Part shown: positions 1 to 16,735 of the stretch, one piece after another
Layout: every line of letters begins with the position of its first letter
Numbering within the stretch: the first letter of the stretch is position 1
Assembly (NCBI GenBank): GCA_963726245.1
Contig: CAVSBT010000041.1
Span: 1-28,334 of the forward strand
DNA length: 28,334 bases
Direction: 5' to 3'
Source: an uncultured Chloroflexia bacterium
Lineage (GTDB): Bacteria > Chloroflexota > Dehalococcoidia > DSTF01 > JALHUB01
The notes under the pieces: model-generated
The model's input: the letters and a program-made list of their open reading frames with translations, nothing else
What the model was told of the DNA's origin: nothing
Databases searched by the model: none
Translations under genes and position numbers: made by a program

Positions 1-61
1 ACCAAAAGGTTCGGAGGCTGTCTGTTCTCCCGTTGTTACCTCTCCTCCTAAATCTCCTTCC

Positions 62-1312
62 TTACTTGATCACACCCTGCTTGATAAGGTTCTCCGCCAC
101 ACTTGCAAGTCCCAAATCCGTGAGCTTCTCTTTGGTCGGAATTCCCCTCTCAACATCCCAACCACGCTCGTCATAGTAGTCATCAAGTAATCTCTCCAAG
201 CCCTCAGCAGAAAGAGGTCTACCCAGACAGTCCCTTAAGATGATCTCTTCCCCGGTCGGAGGCCTGAGAGGCTCCAGCCATCTTGGCGGGAACCGGTCAT
301 CCTTGCGGCCAAACCCCTCCCTGACATTCAATGCCTTGTAAAGGTTCCAGATCCTCTCCCCGGCTCTTAACATCTCACCTGGGGTTGTCTCGATACCGCT
401 CGCCGCTGAATAAAATTCCGCAAGTTTATCTATATCAAGAGAATGATGCCGGTACTCACATATCCCGAGGCTGGTGAGCAATGTGAAAAAATTCTCGGCA
501 TGAGGAGAAATTCGACCGATATTATAGCCTGCTGGCTCATACAGGCATCTATCTATAGCCTCCCTCGACATACCCACATTCTTACAATAGGTCCTTACCT
601 CATCCTGGGGGAAGCGTGACATCATACCACCTTTTTCCGGTCGTGCCCTAAAAGTTACCGCATAGGCTGGCTCAGGGTGCCCACCTTCAGGATTAACAAC
701 GGCCGCCCATCCACCCATGGTGGTCTGTGACATCCTTGGATCAAGATGAAATGTAATGCCCTTGATCTGGCCGGAGTATCTCTCACATTCACTGCCAAAA
801 GCATTGATTACTCCTAATGGCCCATCTGCGAGTATGCTCCCTATACCCTGCTTCCGTGTAACCATCTCAATCAGCTTGGCAGTAGTTTCAAAGTCCCGCT
901 TTAGAATGAACCCTTGGGCATCTTTTGCAGTAATGAGCCCTCTTTCCTGCAACTCCACAGCGAAGTCCATAGTGGAGATGAAAATGATTCTATTGATGCC
1001 GTTCCGGTTGAAAAGGTCAGATAACTTTGCCATCCTCTGGATGTTACCGGCACCGCAGCGGATACCCATCTGCCACGTAGTGCCGATCAGGCTGGAAATG
1101 TTCGTCTCCATGCCCTCGTACTCGCCTTTCTTAACCTTCACCCGGTCTTTACATGGGTATAGGCAGCCCGGGCAGCCGGTCACCCTCCATTGGATCTTAT
1201 CAACGTATTCTTCGATACCGTATAGCCTCTTAGCTTCTTCGACAGGGAATAGATCCGTCCAGTTTTTATAAATAATACCCGCTTTGGGGAAGTAACTCTC
1301 ACTCAGAGCCAT
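62..1312 (-). CDS. Aldehyde:ferredoxin oxidoreductase (AOR/WOR) family, C-terminal part (domains 2-3); probably one gene with 1303-2046
   Basis: CPGCLYPC (CxxCxxxC) plus a distal Cys in LGIC for [4Fe-4S]. C-terminal GERIWNL..NVREGF..DDRFPPR and LLDDYYDERGWD..GIPT are typical of the AOR family. Confidence 0.9.
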   Translation of the reverse strand: MALSESYFPKAGIIYKNWTDLFPVEEAKRLYGIEEYVDKIQWRVTGCPGCLYPCKDRVKVKKGEYEGMETNISSLIGTTWQMGIRCGAGNIQRMAKLSDLFNRNGINRIIFISTMDFAVELQERGLITAKDAQGFILKRDFETTAKLIEMVTRKQGIGSILADGPLGVINAFGSECERYSGQIKGITFHLDPRMSQTTMGGWAAVVNPEGGHPEPAYAVTFRARPEKGGMMSRFPQDEVRTYCKNVGMSREAIDRCLYEPAGYNIGRISPHAENFFTLLTSLGICEYRHHSLDIDKLAEFYSAASGIETTPGEMLRAGERIWNLYKALNVREGFGRKDDRFPPRWLEPLRPPTGEEIILRDCLGRPLSAEGLERLLDDYYDERGWDVERGIPTKEKLTDLGLASVAENLIKQGVIK

Positions 1313-2046
1313 GACATTTTGCCAAACTTTACGTGTTTTTCGTGAGAGGGGTCGGCCCGGTAAGCCTTTAGGATGGGAGAAACAGCTTTTTCGAACCTCT
1401 CTGGACAGGCAACTTCTACCCTTCCAGTTCCCCCCACAGCGATGGCCTTGAGGTTCTTGGAACCCATAACCGCCGCGAGTCCCCCCATGCCCAGAGATGC
1501 CATTTTATCCACCAAGGCAATGCTGATCCTGACCAGATTTTCACCAGCCGGGCCGATGGCGGCTATGCTATAGGTCCTGCCCAGCTCCTGCCAAAGGTGT
1601 TCCGTAGTCTGGTAAATGTCCTTCCCCCATAGGTTACGAGCATCACATATCTCGATGTCATCGTTCCAGATCCTGAGGATTACTGGCCGGTCAGCCCGTC
1701 CAGTAATGATTACATTGTCGTAACCGGCATGTTTGAGCCGTCTGCCCAGACTCATGCCCGTGTTTCCGAAGGATAGGGTGCCATTGACCGGGTTTTTGGT
1801 AACAACGCTGCATCTCACTGCAGATGGGGCTTTCGTCCCGACCAGAGGGCCGGCACCCAGTATAATGACGTTAGACGGGGAAAGAGGCTCTATGCCCGGT
1901 TTTATCAGATCATAAGCAAGTTTCAGGCTGATGCCTATATCTCCTATGAAATCATGGGCTAATTCAGGTTCAAGCTGCACCCGCCCGGTCTTTCCAGTGG
2001 TTAAATCCACTTGCAGTATCCTGCCACAATAACTTCCGATCGACAT
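1303..2046 (-). CDS. Aldehyde:ferredoxin oxidoreductase family, N-terminal domain
   Basis: GRILQVDLTTG, GPLVGT, LKHAGYD, DARNLWGKD, IGPAGENLV and GGLAAVMGSKNLKAI match AFOR_N. SD-like GGAGG lies upstream. The frame shifts near the T4 run at 1317-1320. Confidence 0.9.
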   Translation of the reverse strand: MSIGSYCGRILQVDLTTGKTGRVQLEPELAHDFIGDIGISLKLAYDLIKPGIEPLSPSNVIILGAGPLVGTKAPSAVRCSVVTKNPVNGTLSFGNTGMSLGRRLKHAGYDNVIITGRADRPVILRIWNDDIEICDARNLWGKDIYQTTEHLWQELGRTYSIAAIGPAGENLVRISIALVDKMASLGMGGLAAVMGSKNLKAIAVGGTGRVEVACPERFEKAVSPILKAYRADPSHEKHVKFGKMSWL

Positions 2047-2084
2047 AGTAAGCCTCCTGTATCTGGATTTTGGGTTCCTATTTC

Positions 2085-2750
2085 TCAGAGGACCCCTTTA
2101 ACCGGAGGAAGGTCCTTTTTCCTCTTTTCCAGGGATCGCAGGAAACCTTCATTTGCATGAAGGTTTTTCCAGTCAGGTTCGTTCAATGATGGAATGTAAT
2201 ATACCCGTGTGTTCTTCACCCCGCCAGATAGCAAAGGTTTTGCTCTATCGGAACCCACGAGTTGGTAAATCCTACTCTCAGGGTCATCCAGCCGGCCGAA
2301 TAGAATCGCTTTGGCCGGACATTCTTCAACGCATCTTGGCAGCGAGCCGATATCGATCCTATCTAAACAGAAGTCGCACCCGTCGGCTTTCCCACTGGGA
2401 CCGATGTACAAAGCACCGTAGGGGCAGACAGAAGCACAAACTCCGCATCCATTGCAGCGCTCCTTATCTATCCTAACCACCCCGTCAACCCTCTTGCTTA
2501 TGGCATCCACAGAGCAAAAATTGACGCATATTGGCTCTTCACATTGCATACAATGAACCGGTATAAAGCCTCTCCTGACTACGGGGTACCTTCCATTCTC
2601 CCACTCGATATATCTGAGCCTGTAATATTCATAGGGATGCGTCTCATCTCTCGGGTGAGCCAGTATTTTGTGCTCTTTCTTACAGGCAACGTAGCAGGTC
2701 CGGCACCTGAAGCATTTATCCAGGTCGATGATCATGCCATAGGAACTCAT
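2085..2750 (-). CDS. 4x[4Fe-4S] electron-transfer subunit (DmsB/PsrB/NrfC-like)
   Basis: Four Cys groups: CFRCRTCYVAC, CMQCEEPICVNFC, CNGCGVCASVCP and CDFC..PRCVEECP. N-terminus YGMIIDLDKC. 4-nt ATGA overlap with the upstream gene. Confidence 0.93.
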   Translation of the reverse strand: MSSYGMIIDLDKCFRCRTCYVACKKEHKILAHPRDETHPYEYYRLRYIEWENGRYPVVRRGFIPVHCMQCEEPICVNFCSVDAISKRVDGVVRIDKERCNGCGVCASVCPYGALYIGPSGKADGCDFCLDRIDIGSLPRCVEECPAKAILFGRLDDPESRIYQLVGSDRAKPLLSGGVKNTRVYYIPSLNEPDWKNLHANEGFLRSLEKRKKDLPPVKGVL

Positions 2751-5278
2751 TTTTGCACCCCTTGATCTATTTTGCGTATCCTGACGATGGAGTAGTTCTT
2801 ACCCATTCCGCCAGCGTAGGGTGACACGCTGGAGGGCACAAACCAGTTATAGGTAATTCCTTTTCTGGCCTTCGATAGCATCAAATTTGACCGATGACCA
2901 GCAGCAAAATATACCCATGCCGCCCGGGGATGAAGCCCCTCGGTTACCTTCACTCTGGCTCTTTCCTTAACGCCGATAGCGGCTTCATTGCAAACGCACG
3001 GGTCGTCCTTTTTCCTTGGACCGATACACTCTACCTCCACTAAATCACCATCTTGCGTACCCAGTTTTTTTGCCCTCTCTGCACTGATGTAGATGGCGGT
3101 ATAGTCGCAGTCCCCTTCGATGGCGTCTTCCATCAAATAGCGGTCATGCTGGGTAGCGCTTTTCTGATGCCAGGCTGCTTTTCCGCATATGAGGGTAAAC
3201 TCATCCTCACCTTTAGGTTCTGCTATCGGAACATGAATTGGCAGCGGGTGTACATGGGAGTTTTTGTACCATCTCGATTTAAGATTGTGATAGCACTCCT
3301 CAGATAACTCATTCGAATAAATTTCAAAGCGGCCGCTTCGGGTTGCGATAGGCCTGAACAGAATATTATACTCCAGCGGGTATTCTTCCAAATAAGGCCC
3401 TTCTTCAATGAGTTTCATGGCCGTAACCTTAGGGTAAAGGCCAGATGCGGTAAGGGCCCTATCCCACCAAGCATAGTCCAGATCCAGCCTTTCGAAATAC
3501 CTGCCGAGTCCCAGCCTCTTGGCCACTTCAACAAGGAACCAACTCAGCGGCTTTGAATCCCCTTGGGGTGGTATGGCTTTCGACCTCATATAGGCCACCA
3601 GATGTTCCTTGTCATCGGCGCCAATATAGGTAGCGCCGTATAAATGGTTTCTCTCCAGATAGGACGCTTCGGGGAGTACATAGTCTGCCAAATCAACAAG
3701 TTCTTTGGGCAATTGTTCGCCGACAATGATTAAGTCCAGTTTACTGAGAGCATCCCAGACCCATTTTGAGTCGGGCTGGGTGACCGCGGCGTTTTCCGCT
3801 GTTGATAACACCGCTCTCACCTTCTTCTGGTCGATGGCTTCAAAATGAAGCCAGGGAAGGGCTACTGTAGCCGGGTGAAAGTCTCTGGGTTCCTTATAGC
3901 ATGGCTCCCGATCGATGGTCTTAGCTGACATCACATTCCCCTGGGGTCCACTAACCAATTCCAGCCCCTCGGGATACTCCGGCACCTCAGGAGGTAATGG
4001 CCAGCCAACTCCCACCTTCAGGAGCCTTTCAGCAAAAGGAAACCGGTGCTTTGTGATATAAAGCCCGCCCGGCTTTTCCAGATTCCCCAACAACAAATTT
4101 ACCACGCTATAAGCCCTCATCGTCTGAAACCAGTTCGGATATCTTCCGGAGGTAAAGCCAGGATAAAAAACAACGGACGGTTTGTAAGCTCCTAAGTTCC
4201 TTGCTATCTCGACCGTTTTCTCCGGAAATTCCGTCACTTCGGGAGGATATGCCCCTACTTCTTCAGCGAGCATCTGAAAAGCTGTTTTGCACCCCACAAC
4301 CTTTCCATCTACTGATATGGCCAACGCCTCATTCAAGCCCAGCGTTAGCCCCGCATCTTTACCGGCTCCGGGCACGGGTTTCGCTGAACCCGTGACCGAA
4401 TCCCAGACCAGGTAACGCCCTTCCTTATCCTTCAGTGCCTTACCGTCATCTTCTCTAATGAGTTGAGGGGCGTTGGTATATTTGAGCAGGAAATCCTCAT
4501 CGTAAAGCTTCTCTTTAAGCAGTACATGGGCCACGCTCAGAGCAAGAATGTCATCACCCCCTGGTCTGATGGGAATCCATTCATGGCACCAAGGCGCTGA
4601 ATCCGCCAATTTGGGATCGATGACTACAAACCTGCACCCATTCTGTTTGGCCTTGCTCAGTAGAGCTTGAGAGTTTATTCGGCAGCCGCCACCACCTTCT
4701 GTGGCTGTTCCAGGGATGTTTTGACCGGCGATAACCGCGTATCTGGTACGAGTCCAATCCGCTTCTCCTAAGAGCAGAAAGGGGCCGTGATTACTCCCAA
4801 AGGTCAACATCTTCTCAACGCGGTGGTCTCCCATGCAAACCTGACCATGAAGATACGATATGTTAGACCCGACGATCGCTGCCCAGTAGTGCAAAAAGAA
4901 AATATTATCCGCCTGTACCGGGCACCCCCACCAGATGTCAAAGTACTCGGGATGTCCCATCTCGATATACTCTTTGAGCTTTGCTGATAGGGCGCTAACG
5001 ACTTCCTCCCAGGTGCATCTAATAAATTTTCCTTCCCCTCTCTCGCCCACTCGCTTGAGGGGATAAAGAATTCTATCCGGCGCGTAGATCCTGCCTCCGA
5101 TCCCGGCAATGGCCTTGCCGCACAGCTTGCCTTCCCAGCCAGGAATGTCCTCTCCCTTAATCTCAACTATTTTGCCCTCCCTGACCTTGACTTTCATCGG
5201 GCCAGCGGTGCACATAGCGCAGGCGCTATGGACCCATTTCCCCTCGTCCTTTGCTTCTTTTACTGGTTCCACTTCCAT
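2747..5278 (-). CDS. Molybdopterin (bis-MGD) oxidoreductase, DMSO reductase superfamily catalytic subunit, no Tat signal
   Basis: CAMC...LCGK, PDRILYPLKRVGERGEGKF, VVIDPK, WIPIRPGGD, ADYVLPEASYLER, TRSGRFEIYS and a C-terminal domain IV. Probable Cys metal ligand in HGQVC. SD AGGAGGA upstream. Confidence 0.93.
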   Translation of the reverse strand: MEVEPVKEAKDEGKWVHSACAMCTAGPMKVKVREGKIVEIKGEDIPGWEGKLCGKAIAGIGGRIYAPDRILYPLKRVGERGEGKFIRCTWEEVVSALSAKLKEYIEMGHPEYFDIWWGCPVQADNIFFLHYWAAIVGSNISYLHGQVCMGDHRVEKMLTFGSNHGPFLLLGEADWTRTRYAVIAGQNIPGTATEGGGGCRINSQALLSKAKQNGCRFVVIDPKLADSAPWCHEWIPIRPGGDDILALSVAHVLLKEKLYDEDFLLKYTNAPQLIREDDGKALKDKEGRYLVWDSVTGSAKPVPGAGKDAGLTLGLNEALAISVDGKVVGCKTAFQMLAEEVGAYPPEVTEFPEKTVEIARNLGAYKPSVVFYPGFTSGRYPNWFQTMRAYSVVNLLLGNLEKPGGLYITKHRFPFAERLLKVGVGWPLPPEVPEYPEGLELVSGPQGNVMSAKTIDREPCYKEPRDFHPATVALPWLHFEAIDQKKVRAVLSTAENAAVTQPDSKWVWDALSKLDLIIVGEQLPKELVDLADYVLPEASYLERNHLYGATYIGADDKEHLVAYMRSKAIPPQGDSKPLSWFLVEVAKRLGLGRYFERLDLDYAWWDRALTASGLYPKVTAMKLIEEGPYLEEYPLEYNILFRPIATRSGRFEIYSNELSEECYHNLKSRWYKNSHVHPLPIHVPIAEPKGEDEFTLICGKAAWHQKSATQHDRYLMEDAIEGDCDYTAIYISAERAKKLGTQDGDLVEVECIGPRKKDDPCVCNEAAIGVKERARVKVTEGLHPRAAWVYFAAGHRSNLMLSKARKGITYNWFVPSSVSPYAGGMGKNYSIVRIRKIDQGVQK

Positions 5279-5425
5279 TTCCTCCTACCGGTTTACAAAG
5301 CAGGGAGTGAATACGTCAAGAACCCGGCCTCCACACCTCCCGCCTTTGTGTCATCTGCCTCGACTTCTTTACACCGCGTGGAATACGTCCCGAAGCGTGT
5401 GAGAAGAAAACCACAGGTGAAAACC

Positions 5426-6412
5426 CTATTTTTCTTTCAATATACCGGCCTTGTCCATCATCCTTCGTAACAATACTCTTTGCTCATTCATGTAACTCAG
5501 GGCTCGGTCAGGAAGCAAATGAAAAGGCACGTTAAATCGCTCGATAAGAAATTTGTGATATTCTGGATCATTTGCGGCTATTCTAAAGACATCGACTAAT
5601 TTGTCAGTAACATCCTTAGGCATTTTGGGAGGACCGATAATACTCCCAAAAGAACCAATACTGAGATCGAATCCAAGCTCTTTTATCGTAGGAACATGAT
5701 CGAATGGTGCGGGAGGTCGTTTATCACCAAATGTCGCTAAGTAACGTACATTGCCTGCATCAATTTGAGGCTTTGCCGAAGCAAAATCAATGATACCTAT
5801 ATCTGCGTGCCCTCCTGCAACCTGAGAAATAATAAAACCACCCACGCCCGGCTGAGGAATGATATTAAATTTAAGTCCCGAAACCTCCTCAAAAGCTACC
5901 GCAGTAATCCAGAATCCATGTCCAACCCCTGCGCTAGATAGTAATATTTCTCCAGGATGAGACTTAGCAAACGAAATAACCTCTTCCATCGTTTTAAAAG
6001 ATCGTTGAGATTTGGTCGCCCCAATAACGTTATAGGGGTGAGAATAATAGGTGGCCATAACGGTGTAATCTGAATGATCATACGGCATTAATCCTTGCAT
6101 TTTACAAGTAAGTAGAGTTACTGTTGCACTACCGATGGTATAACCATCCGGCTTAGCGTCATGAGTTTCTCGGTAGCCTAAGGAACTACCGGCCCCGGGT
6201 TTATTAACGATTATGAGCGGTTGACGTAATATCTCTGAAGCTTTTTTGCATAACGGTCGGACTAAGACATCCCCGCCTGAGCCTGGTTCGAGGGGAACTA
6301 TAAAAGTGATAGGTTTTACAGGATACTTCTCTGCTGCTTGTGCCTTATAGCCCAAACTAAAGATACTCAATAATAAAATTGTACTCAGACCCGTGATAAA
6401 TGACCTTCTCAT
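5426..6412 (-). CDS. Tripartite tricarboxylate transporter substrate-binding protein (TctC/Bug family)
   Basis: Signal peptide ending AQA-A, then YPVKPITFIVP..PGSGGD, VNKPGAGS, AKPDGYTI and VPTIKELG, all Bug/TctC hallmarks. Confidence 0.93.
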   Translation of the reverse strand: MRRSFITGLSTILLLSIFSLGYKAQAAEKYPVKPITFIVPLEPGSGGDVLVRPLCKKASEILRQPLIIVNKPGAGSSLGYRETHDAKPDGYTIGSATVTLLTCKMQGLMPYDHSDYTVMATYYSHPYNVIGATKSQRSFKTMEEVISFAKSHPGEILLSSAGVGHGFWITAVAFEEVSGLKFNIIPQPGVGGFIISQVAGGHADIGIIDFASAKPQIDAGNVRYLATFGDKRPPAPFDHVPTIKELGFDLSIGSFGSIIGPPKMPKDVTDKLVDVFRIAANDPEYHKFLIERFNVPFHLLPDRALSYMNEQRVLLRRMMDKAGILKEK

Positions 6413-6539
6413 CTTTAACCCCCTTTCTTCGGTGGAGTTCCCTTTGACATTGCCACCTGGTTAGACCATCGAGTGATCCAAATCCTTCTCCATTTGCCAA
6501 TTCCTTTAAAGGATTTCACCTCCTTCCCCATAAATCATT

Positions 6540-6600
6540 TCGTAAATCTTCTTTTAATCATGGTTGTATGCGAATCTGCGAACAGTTATTCCATTCCACG
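6540..6600. other. Probable junction between unrelated DNA segments (approximate position)
   Basis: Gene content switches abruptly from an anaerobe redox operon to a Planctomycete-type DUF1559 locus, with a visible change in codon style. No mobile-element features. Confidence 0.6.
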
Positions 6601-7712
6601 ATATCAACCGGTACCGCGACATATTCGAGCAGCGGGCCCAGAGCATCAAAGGCTGCAGCGACGAAGCCTGAATGCGACAATTCAGAAAGAGTCCGCTTGC
6701 CGTTTCGCAAAGCTGGTCGCCACTCCTGGACACCCGGCTTTACTCTGATTGAATTGCTGGTTGTGATTGCGATCATTGCCATTCTTGTGGCGTTGCTTCT
6801 TCCGGCCGTCCAGCAGGCACGCGAAGCCGCGCGGCGCACGCAGTGTCGCAACAATCTGAAGCAGATGGGAATTGCACTCGCGAACTATCATGATGTCTAC
6901 GGTGTTCATCCTCCGGCACTGATTAACTCCGGACGATACGAAGACCTGCCGTTCTACAGTGGTGGAAATCGAGTTCTGAATACGACAGGCTGGACTCTGT
7001 TACTCCCGTATCTGGAACAAGCCAATGCCTGGCAAAGATACGACTTCAATCAATGTTCGTCGGGGTCATCGCCTGTCTTGATGCCAGTGGCTGGACACGA
7101 CACAGCCAATCTGAGTGTGACTCAACTGAAGATTCCGATTCTTGGATGTCCATCAGATCCCGGTGCTGGCGAACAATCGACACATTTTCCCGGCACCGAC
7201 GACATCTATTCCCGCAACGCGCGCGGCGCACGAGTTATCTGTTTGCCACCGGGCGATTCACTGACTGGGATTCCACATGGCGTGAAACGTCCTATGACAT
7301 TCGCCGGGGCATGTTCGGAAATAATGGAGCTGCTCGGATGGCAGATCTGAGTGATGGTTCATCAAATACAGTCGCTGTCGGCGAATCGCATGGTGGAACA
7401 ACGCAAAAGATCAGTGTCAATTTCGGACCATGGGGCCTGACAGGAACACATACCTGCTGCCATGGTCGCGTCTTCAGCGACAGCGACAGATCTGTTGATT
7501 CCACGCATTTCTTTGACACACGCTGGGCACTGAACGCTGACTGGGACCAGACGGGACGCAGCTATGCCTGGGTCTTTAACAGCAGTCACACGAGCGGTGG
7601 ACATTTTCTGCTGGGCGATGGTTCGGTCCGCTTCCTGAGTGATGCAATCGACTATCGCGTCTATTGTCTGTTGAACTACATCCAGGACGGAGAGGTGACC
7701 GGTGAATTCTGA
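6568..7712 (+). CDS. DUF1559 prepilin-type protein with H-X9-DG C-terminal motif (one frameshift near 7218-7226)
   Basis: [47 protein letters not shown], then [11 protein letters not shown] and [18 protein letters not shown] in the second frame. The true start is uncertain; TTG at 6697 is possible. Confidence 0.9.
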
Positions 7713-7867
7713 TTCAAACGGCACTCAGACTTAGCGTGGAGCAATTGAGGAATCGCTTCGGCGAGCGGGGGATGTTAATCCCCTGATTGAACAGTGCGCG
7801 TCTCAAACAACTTGTCACAAGCGTCTGCCATTCCAGTCGCAAAATCCTTTTCAAGAAGACTTGATCG

Positions 7868-8425
7868 ATGCCAAAACAGAATATTTCGCTTCTGGTCGCC
7901 GCATGTGTCGTTTTTGTGATCGCGATCGGAATCCAGATTCGTGAACCCGAATGCGTCAGCGGCGTCGTTTTTCTGGATGGTCGGCCGTTGACTCAAGCAG
8001 ACGTTTTTCTTGTCGGCAATGAATCATCGAACAGTGTCGCTCGAAGCTTCGCACGCACTGACAATTCAGGTCATTTTGAAGTGACGAAGCCACTACCACC
8101 GGGAGAATACAAAGTCATCGTTCGCCGCCTGATCGGTGATTCAGTGGAATCGGTCCTGTTGCTCACAGCCGACGAATTCGTGATTGATCCAACTCAGGAA
8201 GAGACCAGGACCAATGCACTCAGCGGCAAACATCGCGCTGCAAACCAAACGGCATCCATCCTGACGCCACTGCAACAATTGCCGGAGATCTACAGCTCTC
8301 CGGAACGCACAATCATCCGCATGCGTGTGCCTCACACTGGCGCTGATACAGCAAACATCCATCTGTCACTCGCCAACTCAAACCACATCGCCACGAATCA
8401 GAACACAATTTTAGCGACACGATAA
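7868..8425 (+). CDS. Carboxypeptidase regulatory-like (transthyretin-like) domain protein, the usual Planctomycete partner of DUF1559 genes
   Basis: Hydrophobic N-terminus, then VSGVVFLDGRPL..ADVF, ARTDNSGHF, LPPGEYKVIV and LPEIYSSPERT. Confidence 0.75.
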   Translation: MPKQNISLLVAACVVFVIAIGIQIREPECVSGVVFLDGRPLTQADVFLVGNESSNSVARSFARTDNSGHFEVTKPLPPGEYKVIVRRLIGDSVESVLLLTADEFVIDPTQEETRTNALSGKHRAANQTASILTPLQQLPEIYSSPERTIIRMRVPHTGADTANIHLSLANSNHIATNQNTILATR

Positions 8426-8528
8426 ATTCTTCTGACGTTCGACAGGTCTTATAGCCGCTGTGCCAATATAAAGTATGTCAGTCGCGCCACGATTGAACTG
8501 AGCTGTTTCCGATTCTGACATCACCACG

Positions 8529-9572
8529 TCACGCAAGATGCTCGCGGACTAACGAAGTGTTTGGCGAATGAACAATCCCGCGTTCCGTGATGATCGCCGT
8601 GATAAGTTCCGCAGGGGTCACATCGAAGGCAGGATTGTAGACGCTGGTATCGTCGGGGGCTGTTTGAGTTCCAAAACCGCAGGTGATTTCTGCTGTGGCT
8701 CGCTGTTCAATCGGAATGCCGCTGCCATCAGGGAGGCTCAGGTCAAACGTACTTGACGGTGCTGCCACGCAAAACGGTATTCCATGATATTTCGCGAGCA
8801 CGGCCACCCCGTACGTTCCGATCTTATTCGCCGCATCGCCATTGGCCGCAATTCGATCGGCACCGGTGATCACCATCTGAATGCGGCCTTCTTTCATCAC
8901 CTGAGCTGCCATGTTGTCGCAGATGAGTGTGACAGGAATATTGCGTTGCTGCAGTTCCCAGGTTGTCAGGCGAGCTCCCTGCAGCAGCGGGCGAGTTTCG
9001 TCGGCAAAGACGTGAATGTTCTTTCCGTCCGCGGCGGCCTGAAACATCACCGCCAGAGCGGTCCCGTCGCCTGCAGTTGCAAGTCCGCCTGCATTGCAGT
9101 GTGTCAGGATTGACATGCCCGATGTGATTAACGTGCTTCCATGCCGGCCTATTAACGAGCACATTGCCTGATCTTCCGTTTCAATGAGTCGCGCTTCTGT
9201 CAGCAGCCGATCATGGATTGCAGCAGCTGTGGATGCGTCACAGCTGGCAGCAACCGACTTCATGCGATTCAGCGCCCAGAAAAGATTCACCGCGGTGGGA
9301 CGACTGCCTGCGAGATACGCGGCTACTCGTTCCACTTCTGACAGGAATATTCCAAGGGCAGAATTTCGAAACGGCTGCAGTCCCGTCACCAGGCCATAGG
9401 CCGCAGCGACGCCAATCGCCGGCGCTCCACGAACTTTCAACACCTTAATCGCGTTCCAGACATCTTCCACAGAATCACAGATCATATTTTCGACATGCAG
9501 TGGAAGCCGAGTCTGATCAAGCAGATTGAGTTTGCCATCGGCGTCGCCCGTCCAGAATAGCGTCTTGTACAA
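8529..9572 (-). CDS. mtnA: S-methyl-5-thioribose-1-phosphate isomerase
   Basis: LLDQTRLP, VRGAPAIG, SRPTAVNL, LTHCNAGGLAT, ETRPLLQGARLT, GADRIAANGD.ANKIGTY and NPAFDVTP. TTG start. Confidence 0.96.
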   Translation of the reverse strand: MYKTLFWTGDADGKLNLLDQTRLPLHVENMICDSVEDVWNAIKVLKVRGAPAIGVAAAYGLVTGLQPFRNSALGIFLSEVERVAAYLAGSRPTAVNLFWALNRMKSVAASCDASTAAAIHDRLLTEARLIETEDQAMCSLIGRHGSTLITSGMSILTHCNAGGLATAGDGTALAVMFQAAADGKNIHVFADETRPLLQGARLTTWELQQRNIPVTLICDNMAAQVMKEGRIQMVITGADRIAANGDAANKIGTYGVAVLAKYHGIPFCVAAPSSTFDLSLPDGSGIPIEQRATAEITCGFGTQTAPDDTSVYNPAFDVTPAELITAIITERGIVHSPNTSLVREHLA

Positions 9573-9789
9573 GTTGTCGCCCCTTGAACTATGTCAAAAT
9601 AAGAAATCAAGCCATTGGATGTGTTTACAGTCTACTGCACACCGCGCGAACGTTGCAGCGACGTTCCCGTTAAACTCAACGGCTTGCAGAGATTCCTGGC
9701 AGCGTCATTTGAGACAGAAAACAGTGGCACCGATCCAGGTCTTTCGCCATCACACCGCATCCTCCTGAGCAAGGGTTCAATCATGAAGC

Positions 9790-9840
9790 AGTGAGGCGAG
9801 TGGCGGAAATGAATTTACCGGTACATTCGATGTGCCTGGG
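9790..9840. other. Probable junction between the Planctomycete-like and high-GC Chloroflexota-like segments (approximate position)
   Basis: GC rises sharply at about 9840 and the indel density changes. No att site or transposase nearby. Confidence 0.7.
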
Positions 9841-10279
9841 CTAATCATCTTTGCGCTCCCACAGCGACTGGTAGCTCTCGCCGCCGCGGATGGCGGTGAT
9901 AACCTCCGCCTTCTCTTCCTGCACCAGCTCCTGGAAGACGGCCTCCGCCTGCTCCTCGACCCGGAGTGGCCGCTGGCGGCAAGCCGGTCGATGATGCGCT
10001 GCCAGAGGCCGGCGACGCGGAAGGTCTCCACGTGGCGTGGCCAGGTGAAGGACATGATCTTTTCGGGCAATGGAAAGTGAGGGCGAAGCTGCTTCAGGCT
10101 GCGGAAGCGCTCCTCCACCGAGGAGGCCTTGGGCACCAGCTGAAGCAGGGGGCCTCCACCTCGTTGTGGCGGGCGTCCATCAGCAGGCGCTTCTCCAGGA
10201 TGGCGAAGCGGATCACCAACACCTCGGCGGTGTCGATGACCTCCCTCACCTCGTCCAAGTCCATCCCGAATTCGTCCAT
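9841..10279 (-). CDS. Hypothetical protein of about 145 aa (two frameshifts)
   Basis: Three frames join into one protein: MDEFGMDLDEV..RLLMDARHNEVE / VPKASSVEERFRSLKQLRP..LWQRIIDRL / VEEQAEAVFQELVQEEKAEV..YQSLWERKDD*. Strong GC3 bias. Confidence 0.7.
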
Positions 10280-13185: not shown

Positions 13186-16718
<3,533 letters not shown>

Positions 16719-16735
16719 TAAGGCAGGCCAGGTTT

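Follow-up and report, generated by a model that had tools for sequence, protein, structure and literature searches.

Pyrogallol-phloroglucinol transhydroxylase is an alpha-beta heterodimer whose iron-sulfur (Fe-S) beta subunit has no known external partner, acetylene hydratase does without a beta subunit, and anaerobic phenylalanine degradation combines a dimethyl sulfoxide (DMSO)-reductase-family enzyme with an Fe-S subunit, an aldehyde oxidoreductase (AOR), an aminotransferase and a CoA ligase. Together with the periplasmic PsrABC-type enzymes, these are among the described systems with which the gene cluster analyzed in this study can be compared. The cluster occupies positions 62-6412 of a 28,334-nt stretch of DNA (the window), which is the complete contig C41 (CAVSBT010000041.1) of a 2.68-Mb metagenome-assembled genome (MAG; GCA_963726245.1; 46 contigs, 82.8% completeness, 6.3% contamination) of an uncultured Chloroflexia bacterium placed in the Dehalococcoidia. 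On the minus strand it holds, in order, genes for a TctC/Bug-type binding protein, a bis-molybdopterin guanine dinucleotide (MGD) enzyme, an Fe-S subunit and an AOR-family enzyme. A preliminary description had reported four co-oriented genes with an ATGA overlap and a 38-nt gap, and had proposed that one Fe-S wire joins the two pterin enzymes as a unit. The layout was confirmed by open reading frames (ORFs) and domains: the beta and alpha genes overlap by 4 nt (ATGA), and the AOR gene starts 38 nt past the Fe-S stop codon. The proposed unit was not supported. What the analysis brings out is a sizeable unstudied clade of cytoplasmic PsrAB-like molybdenum or tungsten (Mo/W) enzymes, and the interest lies in this clade and not in the trio.

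The cytoplasmic alpha-beta pair and its clade

Judged by its sequence, the MGD-FeS pair is a widespread, uncharacterized cytoplasmic offshoot of PsrAB-like enzymes with a likely cysteine metal ligand. The catalytic alpha subunit contains the domains of the DMSO reductase family (PF00384, 1.4e-28; PF01568, 4.8e-08), and its best match in the PDB was PsrA (2vpw; 1e-52 by sequence and 4e-63 by profile). The best NCBIfam match was PhsA, which at 220 bits stayed below the cut-off of 694, and all NCBIfam matches were far under their cut-offs. A search of the ESM Atlas returned generic 'molybdopterin-dependent oxidoreductase' clusters only. No twin-arginine (RR) motif was present at the N-terminus, in agreement with the preliminary description, which had seen no twin-arginine signal on this enzyme. 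The FS0 motif has only three cysteines (CAMCTAGP...C53; C20, C23 and C53), one fewer than the four of a [4Fe-4S] site, and its third position is Ala/Gly-Pro (CAMCxx[A/G]P) in all 38 close relatives in which the motif could be read. Cys148 (HGQVC) is invariant in alignment A1 and falls, in the profile alignment, on the cysteine of the PsrA motif 'SLCTAP', which is the Mo ligand of PsrA; Cys148 is thus likely to be the metal ligand of the alpha subunit. In formate dehydrogenases a His follows the Sec or Cys ligand. A reading of the alpha subunit as a formate dehydrogenase was rejected because Phe or Met takes the place of this His.

The beta subunit is a PsrB/DmsB-like ferredoxin with 16 cysteines in four groups, all of which are kept, and its best PDB match was PsrB (2vpw_B, 3.4e-33). 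It is 60-72% identical to its counterparts encoded just after the MGD gene in cytoplasmic-clade loci (alignment A2). A C-terminal tail of about 35 residues (...RKKDLPPVKGVL; RKxDLPPxKGxL) is conserved in that clade and missing from members of a sister clade with twin-arginine translocation (Tat) signals. Many betas of the cytoplasmic clade in A2 have Ser/Ala or Gly in place of Cys2 or Cys3 of group I, whereas the Tat clade and the window protein keep all four. In many of these betas (L019-L054 and others) the first group has the form CxRSRTC or CxRCRTG, and one cluster is left with three ligands. No NrfD-like gene was found in the window. The earlier observation that no NrfD/PsrC anchor follows the Fe-S gene therefore stands within the window, where the sequence ends 61 nt past the AOR.

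The cytoplasmic clade comprises at least 45 sequence clusters at 90% identity. All 45 of the closest clusters (P0001-P0045) lack a Tat motif, and the 38 with a readable FS0 motif all lack its third cysteine. The sister clade (P0046-59, P0063-65 and P0068-70), 54-57% identical to the window protein, has both a Tat motif and CxxCxxC. This split repeats at the locus level: the Tat-clade loci hold NrfD in 7 cases and a TorD-like chaperone in 16, plus a polyferredoxin/FlpD protein, whereas neither NrfD nor TorD-like gene clusters occurred in loci with the long-type Fe-S gene. The claim that the MGD-FeS enzyme is cytoplasmic and has no anchor is thus supported by its subclade. The two losses do not always go together. 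In L053 (6518-9019) FS0 reads CSMSTTCP, with the second cysteine gone and the third present, and L044 (2065-4563) and P0060-P0062 lack Tat yet retain CxxCxxC. Because these proteins show other combinations, the loss of export and the loss of the FS0 ligand are to be regarded as separate events.

The Tat-bearing sister clade is, as far as could be seen, also uncharacterized. Its loci (L008, L012, L014-L018, L036, L040-L042 and L058-L063) show a fixed cluster of MGD(Tat)-FeS-(NrfD)-TorD-like-polyferredoxin/FlpD protein, often with a sigma-54 activator on the 3' side, and come from MAGs of Syntrophomonadaceae, Desulfatiglandales and Bacilli. Three more distant homologues (P0082, P0084 and P0089; 32-38% identity) are fusions of an MGD enzyme with a TorD/NarJ-type chaperone domain (PF02613), and two of these proteins are 1036-1048 aa long. 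The named genome loci belong to MAGs labelled Deltaproteobacteria (Desulfobacterota), Dehalococcoidales and Bathyarchaeota, and to Syntrophomonadaceae for the Tat clade.

The genes beside the cytoplasmic pair vary but share the theme of carboxylate or amino-acid uptake and 2-hydroxy-acid enzymes. They include D-2-hydroxyacid dehydrogenase (7 loci), LarA-type nickel-pincer racemases and GlcD/GlpC-like proteins, further a class III aminotransferase, GntR, thiolase with DUF35, a CoA ligase and a reductase of the old yellow enzyme type. Tripartite ATP-independent periplasmic (TRAP) transporters were found in 4 loci and Liv-type ATP-binding cassette (ABC) transporters in 6. The preliminary description had proposed an imported substrate, and the recurrence of the organic-acid uptake theme upholds that part of its proposal. 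The repeated uptake and 2-hydroxy-acid neighbors suggest that the clade acts in anaerobic organic-acid breakdown, which makes this context a concrete target for enzymology. No characterized member of the clade of the pair was found, the nearest structure being PsrAB (2vpw) at profile level only; the preliminary description had likewise not recognized a characterized system. A limited search of the open-access literature gave no description of this cytoplasmic Psr-like clade, and the relevant passages of one review list only the known cytoplasmic members (PMC10100899).

Synteny and the AOR-family gene

Relatives of the MGD protein were collected in 17 loci from species-representative genomes and 48 metagenomic loci; one is a duplicate, so 64 of the 65 are distinct. 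In each of the 50 loci that extend past the MGD gene, an Fe-S gene comes immediately after it (14 of 17 genome loci and 36 of 48 metagenome loci). Everything else around the pair is variable. An AOR gene after the Fe-S gene was seen in none of the 25 loci that have a long-type Fe-S gene and at least 700 nt of downstream sequence, and a TctC gene in none of the 65. The MGD-FeS-AOR trio is therefore not conserved, an outcome that the preliminary description had itself named as refuting its proposal, and the idea of a single wire between two pterin sites has no support from synteny. An AOR-family gene does lie near the pair in 5 of the 64 loci (L044, L050, L053, L055 and L057). It is always upstream and 24-42% identical to the window AOR, and that of L057 is accompanied by its own 165-aa Fe-S gene. 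Some proximity is expected by chance because pair-bearing genomes are rich in such genes: five of them hold 2-10 AOR paralogs each, none more than 39% identical to P0122, the closest relative of the window AOR described below. A model of a complex of the N- and C-terminal AOR parts with the beta subunit, built with custom alignments, scored 0.00 in both runs, with no controls folded, and was counted neither for nor against such a complex. A fixed three-part, two-pterin complex is not supported, since the MGD-FeS pair normally occurs without an adjoining AOR gene, and the three-gene arrangement looks like a one-off.

The preliminary description was right about the family and the spacing of the AOR gene; its single gene, however, is split here into two ORFs (Table 1). 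Both AOR domains were detected, on separate ORFs. The N-terminal ORF aligns with residues 1 to about 245 of two full-length relatives, P0122 (662 aa, 79% identity) and P0123 (661 aa), which have a single uninterrupted frame; across the break P0122 reads GKMAWALSDSYFPK. In metagenome run X1, a contig spanning 828-1473 (about 98% identity) has an intact frame, with one additional base after 1308. Since other genes of C41 (DUF1559 at 7218, glutamyl-tRNA synthetase and several fragments) are split too, the likeliest cause of the break is faulty assembly or a private mutation. The CxxCxxxC...C motif for a [4Fe-4S] cluster (C47, C50, C54 and C285 of the C-terminal ORF) is conserved in alignment A4, and its cysteines align with those of 9mqx_D, as shown for P0122. 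With P0122 as query, 9mqx_D was also the closest solved AOR (273 bits). The subclade of the window AOR is rare, since identities above 55% were found only in P0122 and P0123.

The TctC protein at the head of the cluster has a signal-like segment at its N-terminus and no NCBIfam equivalog match. Identity to its closest relatives does not exceed 59%; those with a name belong to MAGs of Deltaproteobacteria and Syntrophus, and one contig often carries several paralogs. The sets P0264/P0292/P0329 and P0269/P0305/P0324/P0340, for example, are paralogs 52-57% identical to the window protein that share long contigs, a pattern suggestive of Bug-like expansion of orphan binding proteins among uncultured anaerobes of the Deltaproteobacteria type. 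No TctA or TctB gene was seen in the window, and a search of the 82.8% complete MAG gave no member of the TctA family (PF01970). No terminator-like site was reported in the spacer between TctC and the MGD gene, where the promoter and terminator scan was at chance level overall and uninformative.

Table 1. Positions of the genes of the cluster and of other features of contig C41
Feature	Position	Strand	Length	Domains and remarks
TctC/Bug-type extracytoplasmic solute-binding protein	5426..6412	-	328 aa	PF03401 (3.8e-37); first gene
Spacer, TctC to MGD	5279..5425	-	147 nt	GGAGG ribosome-binding site just 5' of the MGD start codon
Catalytic alpha subunit, Mo/W-bis-MGD enzyme	2747..5278	-	843 aa	PF00384, PF01568, PF04879
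Beta subunit, PsrB/DmsB-like ferredoxin	2085..2750	-	221 aa	Fer4_11 and related Pfam families
AOR, N-terminal part (AFOR_N and linker)	1303..2046	-	247 aa	PF02730 (1.8e-66); premature stop from the frameshift
AOR, C-terminal part (domains 2 and 3, AFOR_C)	62..1312	-	416 aa	PF01314 (1.9e-66); profile positions 1-39 missing
Deletion, GGG to GG on the coding strand	1308..1309	-	1 nt	Splits the AOR gene
Second piece of about 50% GC, outside the operon	6556..9722	.		Frameshifted DUF1559 gene, CarboxypepD_reg-like protein, MtnA (Pfam)

A pathway reading, its rivals and the origin of the contig

The reading preferred here, with a probability of roughly 0.6, is that 62-6412 is a co-oriented catabolic cluster in which the MGD-FeS pair, the TctC protein and the AOR are probably steps of one pathway and not a fixed complex. 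Its core would be an autonomous soluble alpha-beta oxidoreductase with a Mo/W-bis(pyranopterin guanine dinucleotide) (bisPGD) cofactor, a cytoplasmic descendant of periplasmic PsrABC-type enzymes that would have lost the Tat signal, the NrfD anchor and the third FS0 cysteine and gained the C-terminal tail of beta. At the window locus, a TctC-type binding protein for organic-acid uptake and a W/Mo enzyme of the AOR family for the interconversion of aldehyde and carboxylate may have been added. At its Cys-ligated metal, the alpha subunit would transfer an oxygen or sulfur atom (by hydroxylation, dehydroxylation or oxide reduction) to or from an acid that is imported or derived. Electrons would pass through the clusters of beta to a diffusible low-potential carrier such as ferredoxin, and the AOR would draw on the same carrier pool.

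Several points weigh against this reading. In 5 of 64 loci the pair shares a co-oriented cluster with an AOR-family gene, which may exceed chance, and the order of an Fe-S gene followed by an AOR gene resembles the aorA-aorB order of AorABC. Both 9mqx_D and 8c0z_A were solved with a small Fe-S subunit, and the window AOR has no other visible partner gene before the contig ends. The cluster contains no ferredoxin gene. The cluster ligands lost from FS0, and from group I of beta in many relatives, may mean that the alpha-beta pair is not a net redox enzyme. It is also only the shared orientation and the short gaps that point to co-transcription of the four genes.

The alternative that survives best, though it is improbable, is that the alpha-beta pair is a non-redox hydratase or group-transferase like acetylene hydratase or transhydroxylase, with Fe-S clusters that are vestigial or poise the metal; the AOR would then be simply the next enzyme or unrelated. 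The absence of the third FS0 cysteine from every readable close relative agrees with this, as does the replacement of Cys2 or Cys3 in group I of many betas of the clade, while the Tat clade keeps four. The pair also has neither an anchor nor a partner gene. Acetylene hydratase (2e7z, 9.8e-41) ranks among the better profile matches, and the beta subunit of transhydroxylase (4v4c_B) was matched at 7.7e-19. However, three cysteines can hold a functional [3Fe-4S] cluster, as in arsenite oxidase, and the window beta retains all 16 of its own. The nearest relatives by sequence are respiratory-type reductases, and the putative metal ligand is a Cys as in PsrA, versus the Ser given for transhydroxylase in the table of a review (PMC10100899).

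The second alternative is that the neighborhood means nothing, either through chance and operon shuffling in an anaerobe rich in AOR and Bug genes or through misassembly inside 1-6555. The state of the contig speaks in part for it. GC content is about 0.47-0.56 over 1-10000 and 0.60-0.74 beyond, with a step at about 9800 and a genome value of 0.666, so that the operon sits inside a piece of about 50% GC (about 1-6555) of a 67% GC Dehalococcoidia MAG. In the same MAG, contigs C31, C32 and C46 also have terminal low-GC stretches. Contigs of run X1 cover 53-6325 at 95-99% identity and similar depth and hardly anything farther, whereas contigs of X2, X3 and X6 cover 6556-9725 and not the operon (1-6400). 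Before 6556, contigs of X2 and X3 have 376 and 623 unaligned letters, and past 9722 an X2 contig continues but diverges from the window; both edges of the 6556-9722 piece are thus breakpoints relative to public contigs. Missing cover of window parts in runs X1-X6 was not by itself counted as evidence; the case for a chimera is built on composition and on the contigs that part from the window at 6556 and about 9722.

C41 is probably chimeric because other metagenomes hold the 1-6555 and 6556-9722 pieces separately. It looks like three pieces from different organisms, namely the operon, a Planctomycetota-like piece and a host piece of 67-70% GC. DUF1559 is a hallmark of Planctomycetota, and the DUF1559 matches of the MAG are confined to the middle piece. 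There, a DUF1559 gene (6568-7712, plus strand) that encodes a prepilin-type N-methylation motif is broken into two overlapping frames, and the X2 and X3 contigs have one extra G behind 7218. Farther on, a glutamyl/glutaminyl-tRNA synthetase gene (15167-16721, plus strand) is likewise split across two overlapping frames, and between 10000 and 28334 a thiamine pyrophosphate enzyme, a trehalose-synthase-like gene and a histidine phosphatase are present as fragments only. The high-GC part seems to be full of indel errors, which bears on every frameshift in C41. The MGD gene was found in none of 40 relatives of the MAG, and a search of 400 other Chloroflexota genomes gave no AOR with more than 39% identity. 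The 1-6555 piece was probably derived from a different anaerobe of about 50% GC, with a Desulfobacterota-like source, and not from the 67% GC Dehalococcoidia genome, and a chimeric join is likelier than a recent island. Because the contig stops 61 nt after the AOR stop codon, the region past position 1 could not be inspected.

A composite and error-rich contig, TctC relatives with many paralogs per contig, numerous AOR paralogs in such genomes and the lack of conservation of both the TctC and the AOR neighbor would all fit a meaningless neighborhood. Against this, the X1 contigs that cover the operon run across the Fe-S/MGD junction (2663-3166) and across the MGD start (5026-5298), the genes are separated on one strand by a 4-nt overlap and short gaps of 38 and 147 nt, and genes for carboxylate or amino-acid transporters lie beside the pair in 10 other loci. 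This alternative is accordingly unlikely, and ranks after the non-redox enzyme.

The least probable of the three is a soluble heterotrimer of MGD enzyme, Fe-S subunit and AOR in which the beta clusters bridge FS0 and the AOR [4Fe-4S] cluster without a free carrier: the narrow gap between the Fe-S and AOR genes, a beta without a membrane partner and hence with a free distal end, the poly-ferredoxin subunits (9mqx_E and 8c0z_C) of the PDB-nearest AORs, the AOR-family genes near the pair in five loci and the lack of any other redox-partner gene in the cluster speak for it, but the arrangement is unique to the window, its beta has no special feature relative to the long-type betas of A2, nearly all of which come from loci without AOR, the AORs of the five loci are of other subclades, and chance proximity is not rare.

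The pathway reading is thus retained, and beyond it lie two bolder proposals. In the less radical one, which is tentative but the more likely of the two, the cytoplasmic PsrAB-like clade with a three-Cys FS0 would be a new enzyme class for 2-hydroxy-, 2-oxo- or related organic acids in Bathyarchaeia, Dehalococcoidia and Desulfobacterota. In the other, which is very unlikely, the anchor-less beta would dock the AOR at its free distal end, and about six Fe-S clusters would join the Cys-ligated Mo/W-bisPGD to the tungsto-bispterin, coupling aldehyde oxidation (or acid reduction) directly to oxo-transfer on the same imported acid. To our knowledge, no characterized system is a soluble enzyme in which one wire serves two different pterin cofactors. 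As an apparent one-off in a probably chimeric and error-rich contig, the trio does not warrant recognition as a new type of enzyme complex.

Comparison with characterized systems

The TctC gene recalls TctABC and the orphan Bug proteins in its domain, its signal-like N-terminus and its position at the head of a catabolic cluster. It differs in the absence of TctA from the 82.8% complete MAG and of TctA and TctB from the window, and in that its relatives are no closer than 59%. The name PadBCD (phenylacetyl-CoA:acceptor oxidoreductase) was on none of the 120 MGD homologues listed. A literature search for HVOR, the Mo-dependent 2-oxo-acid reductase of Proteus, gave only unrelated papers that use this abbreviation. 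In the literature passages found, PadBCD is mentioned in genome annotation only (PMC4959651).

The window AOR shares AFOR_N and AFOR_C domains and the [4Fe-4S] Cys motif with AorABC/WOR5-type AORs (8c0z, 9mqx and 6x6u), and a gene for a four-cluster ferredoxin-like protein lies directly upstream of it; 9mqx_D was solved with an Fe-S subunit. However, the Fe-S gene of the window is an orthologue of the MGD beta genes and not a small AorA-like gene (9mqx_E, 2e-11; 8c0z_C, 2.9e-11), and no gene for an AorC-like FAD subunit is visible in the cluster, whose contig ends 61 nt past the AOR.

Transhydroxylase (4v4c) and acetylene hydratase (2e7z) are, like the pair, anchor-less soluble cytoplasmic enzymes of the DMSO reductase family, act on organic substrates and were matched at profile level. 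The relationship is nevertheless distant only, as the profile scores given above indicate.

The closest resemblance is to the polysulfide/thiosulfate reductase PsrABC of Thermus thermophilus (2vpw) and the PhsA-PsrA group. These gave the best PDB and NCBIfam matches for both subunits and have the same domain order, a Cys at the 'SLCTAP' position and a beta subunit with four Cys groups, and the sister clade of the window enzyme still has the Tat signal, NrfD and the TorD-like chaperone. The window enzyme differs in lacking the Tat signal, an NrfD/PsrC gene, a TorD-like gene and the third FS0 Cys, and its beta has the extra conserved tail of about 35 residues. The clade thereby illustrates how a respiratory periplasmic complex may become a soluble enzyme, through loss of Tat signal, anchor, chaperone gene and an FS0 ligand and gain of a beta tail. 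The genomic context of the cytoplasmic pair differs as well, with organic-acid enzymes and transporters in place of sulfur-respiration genes.

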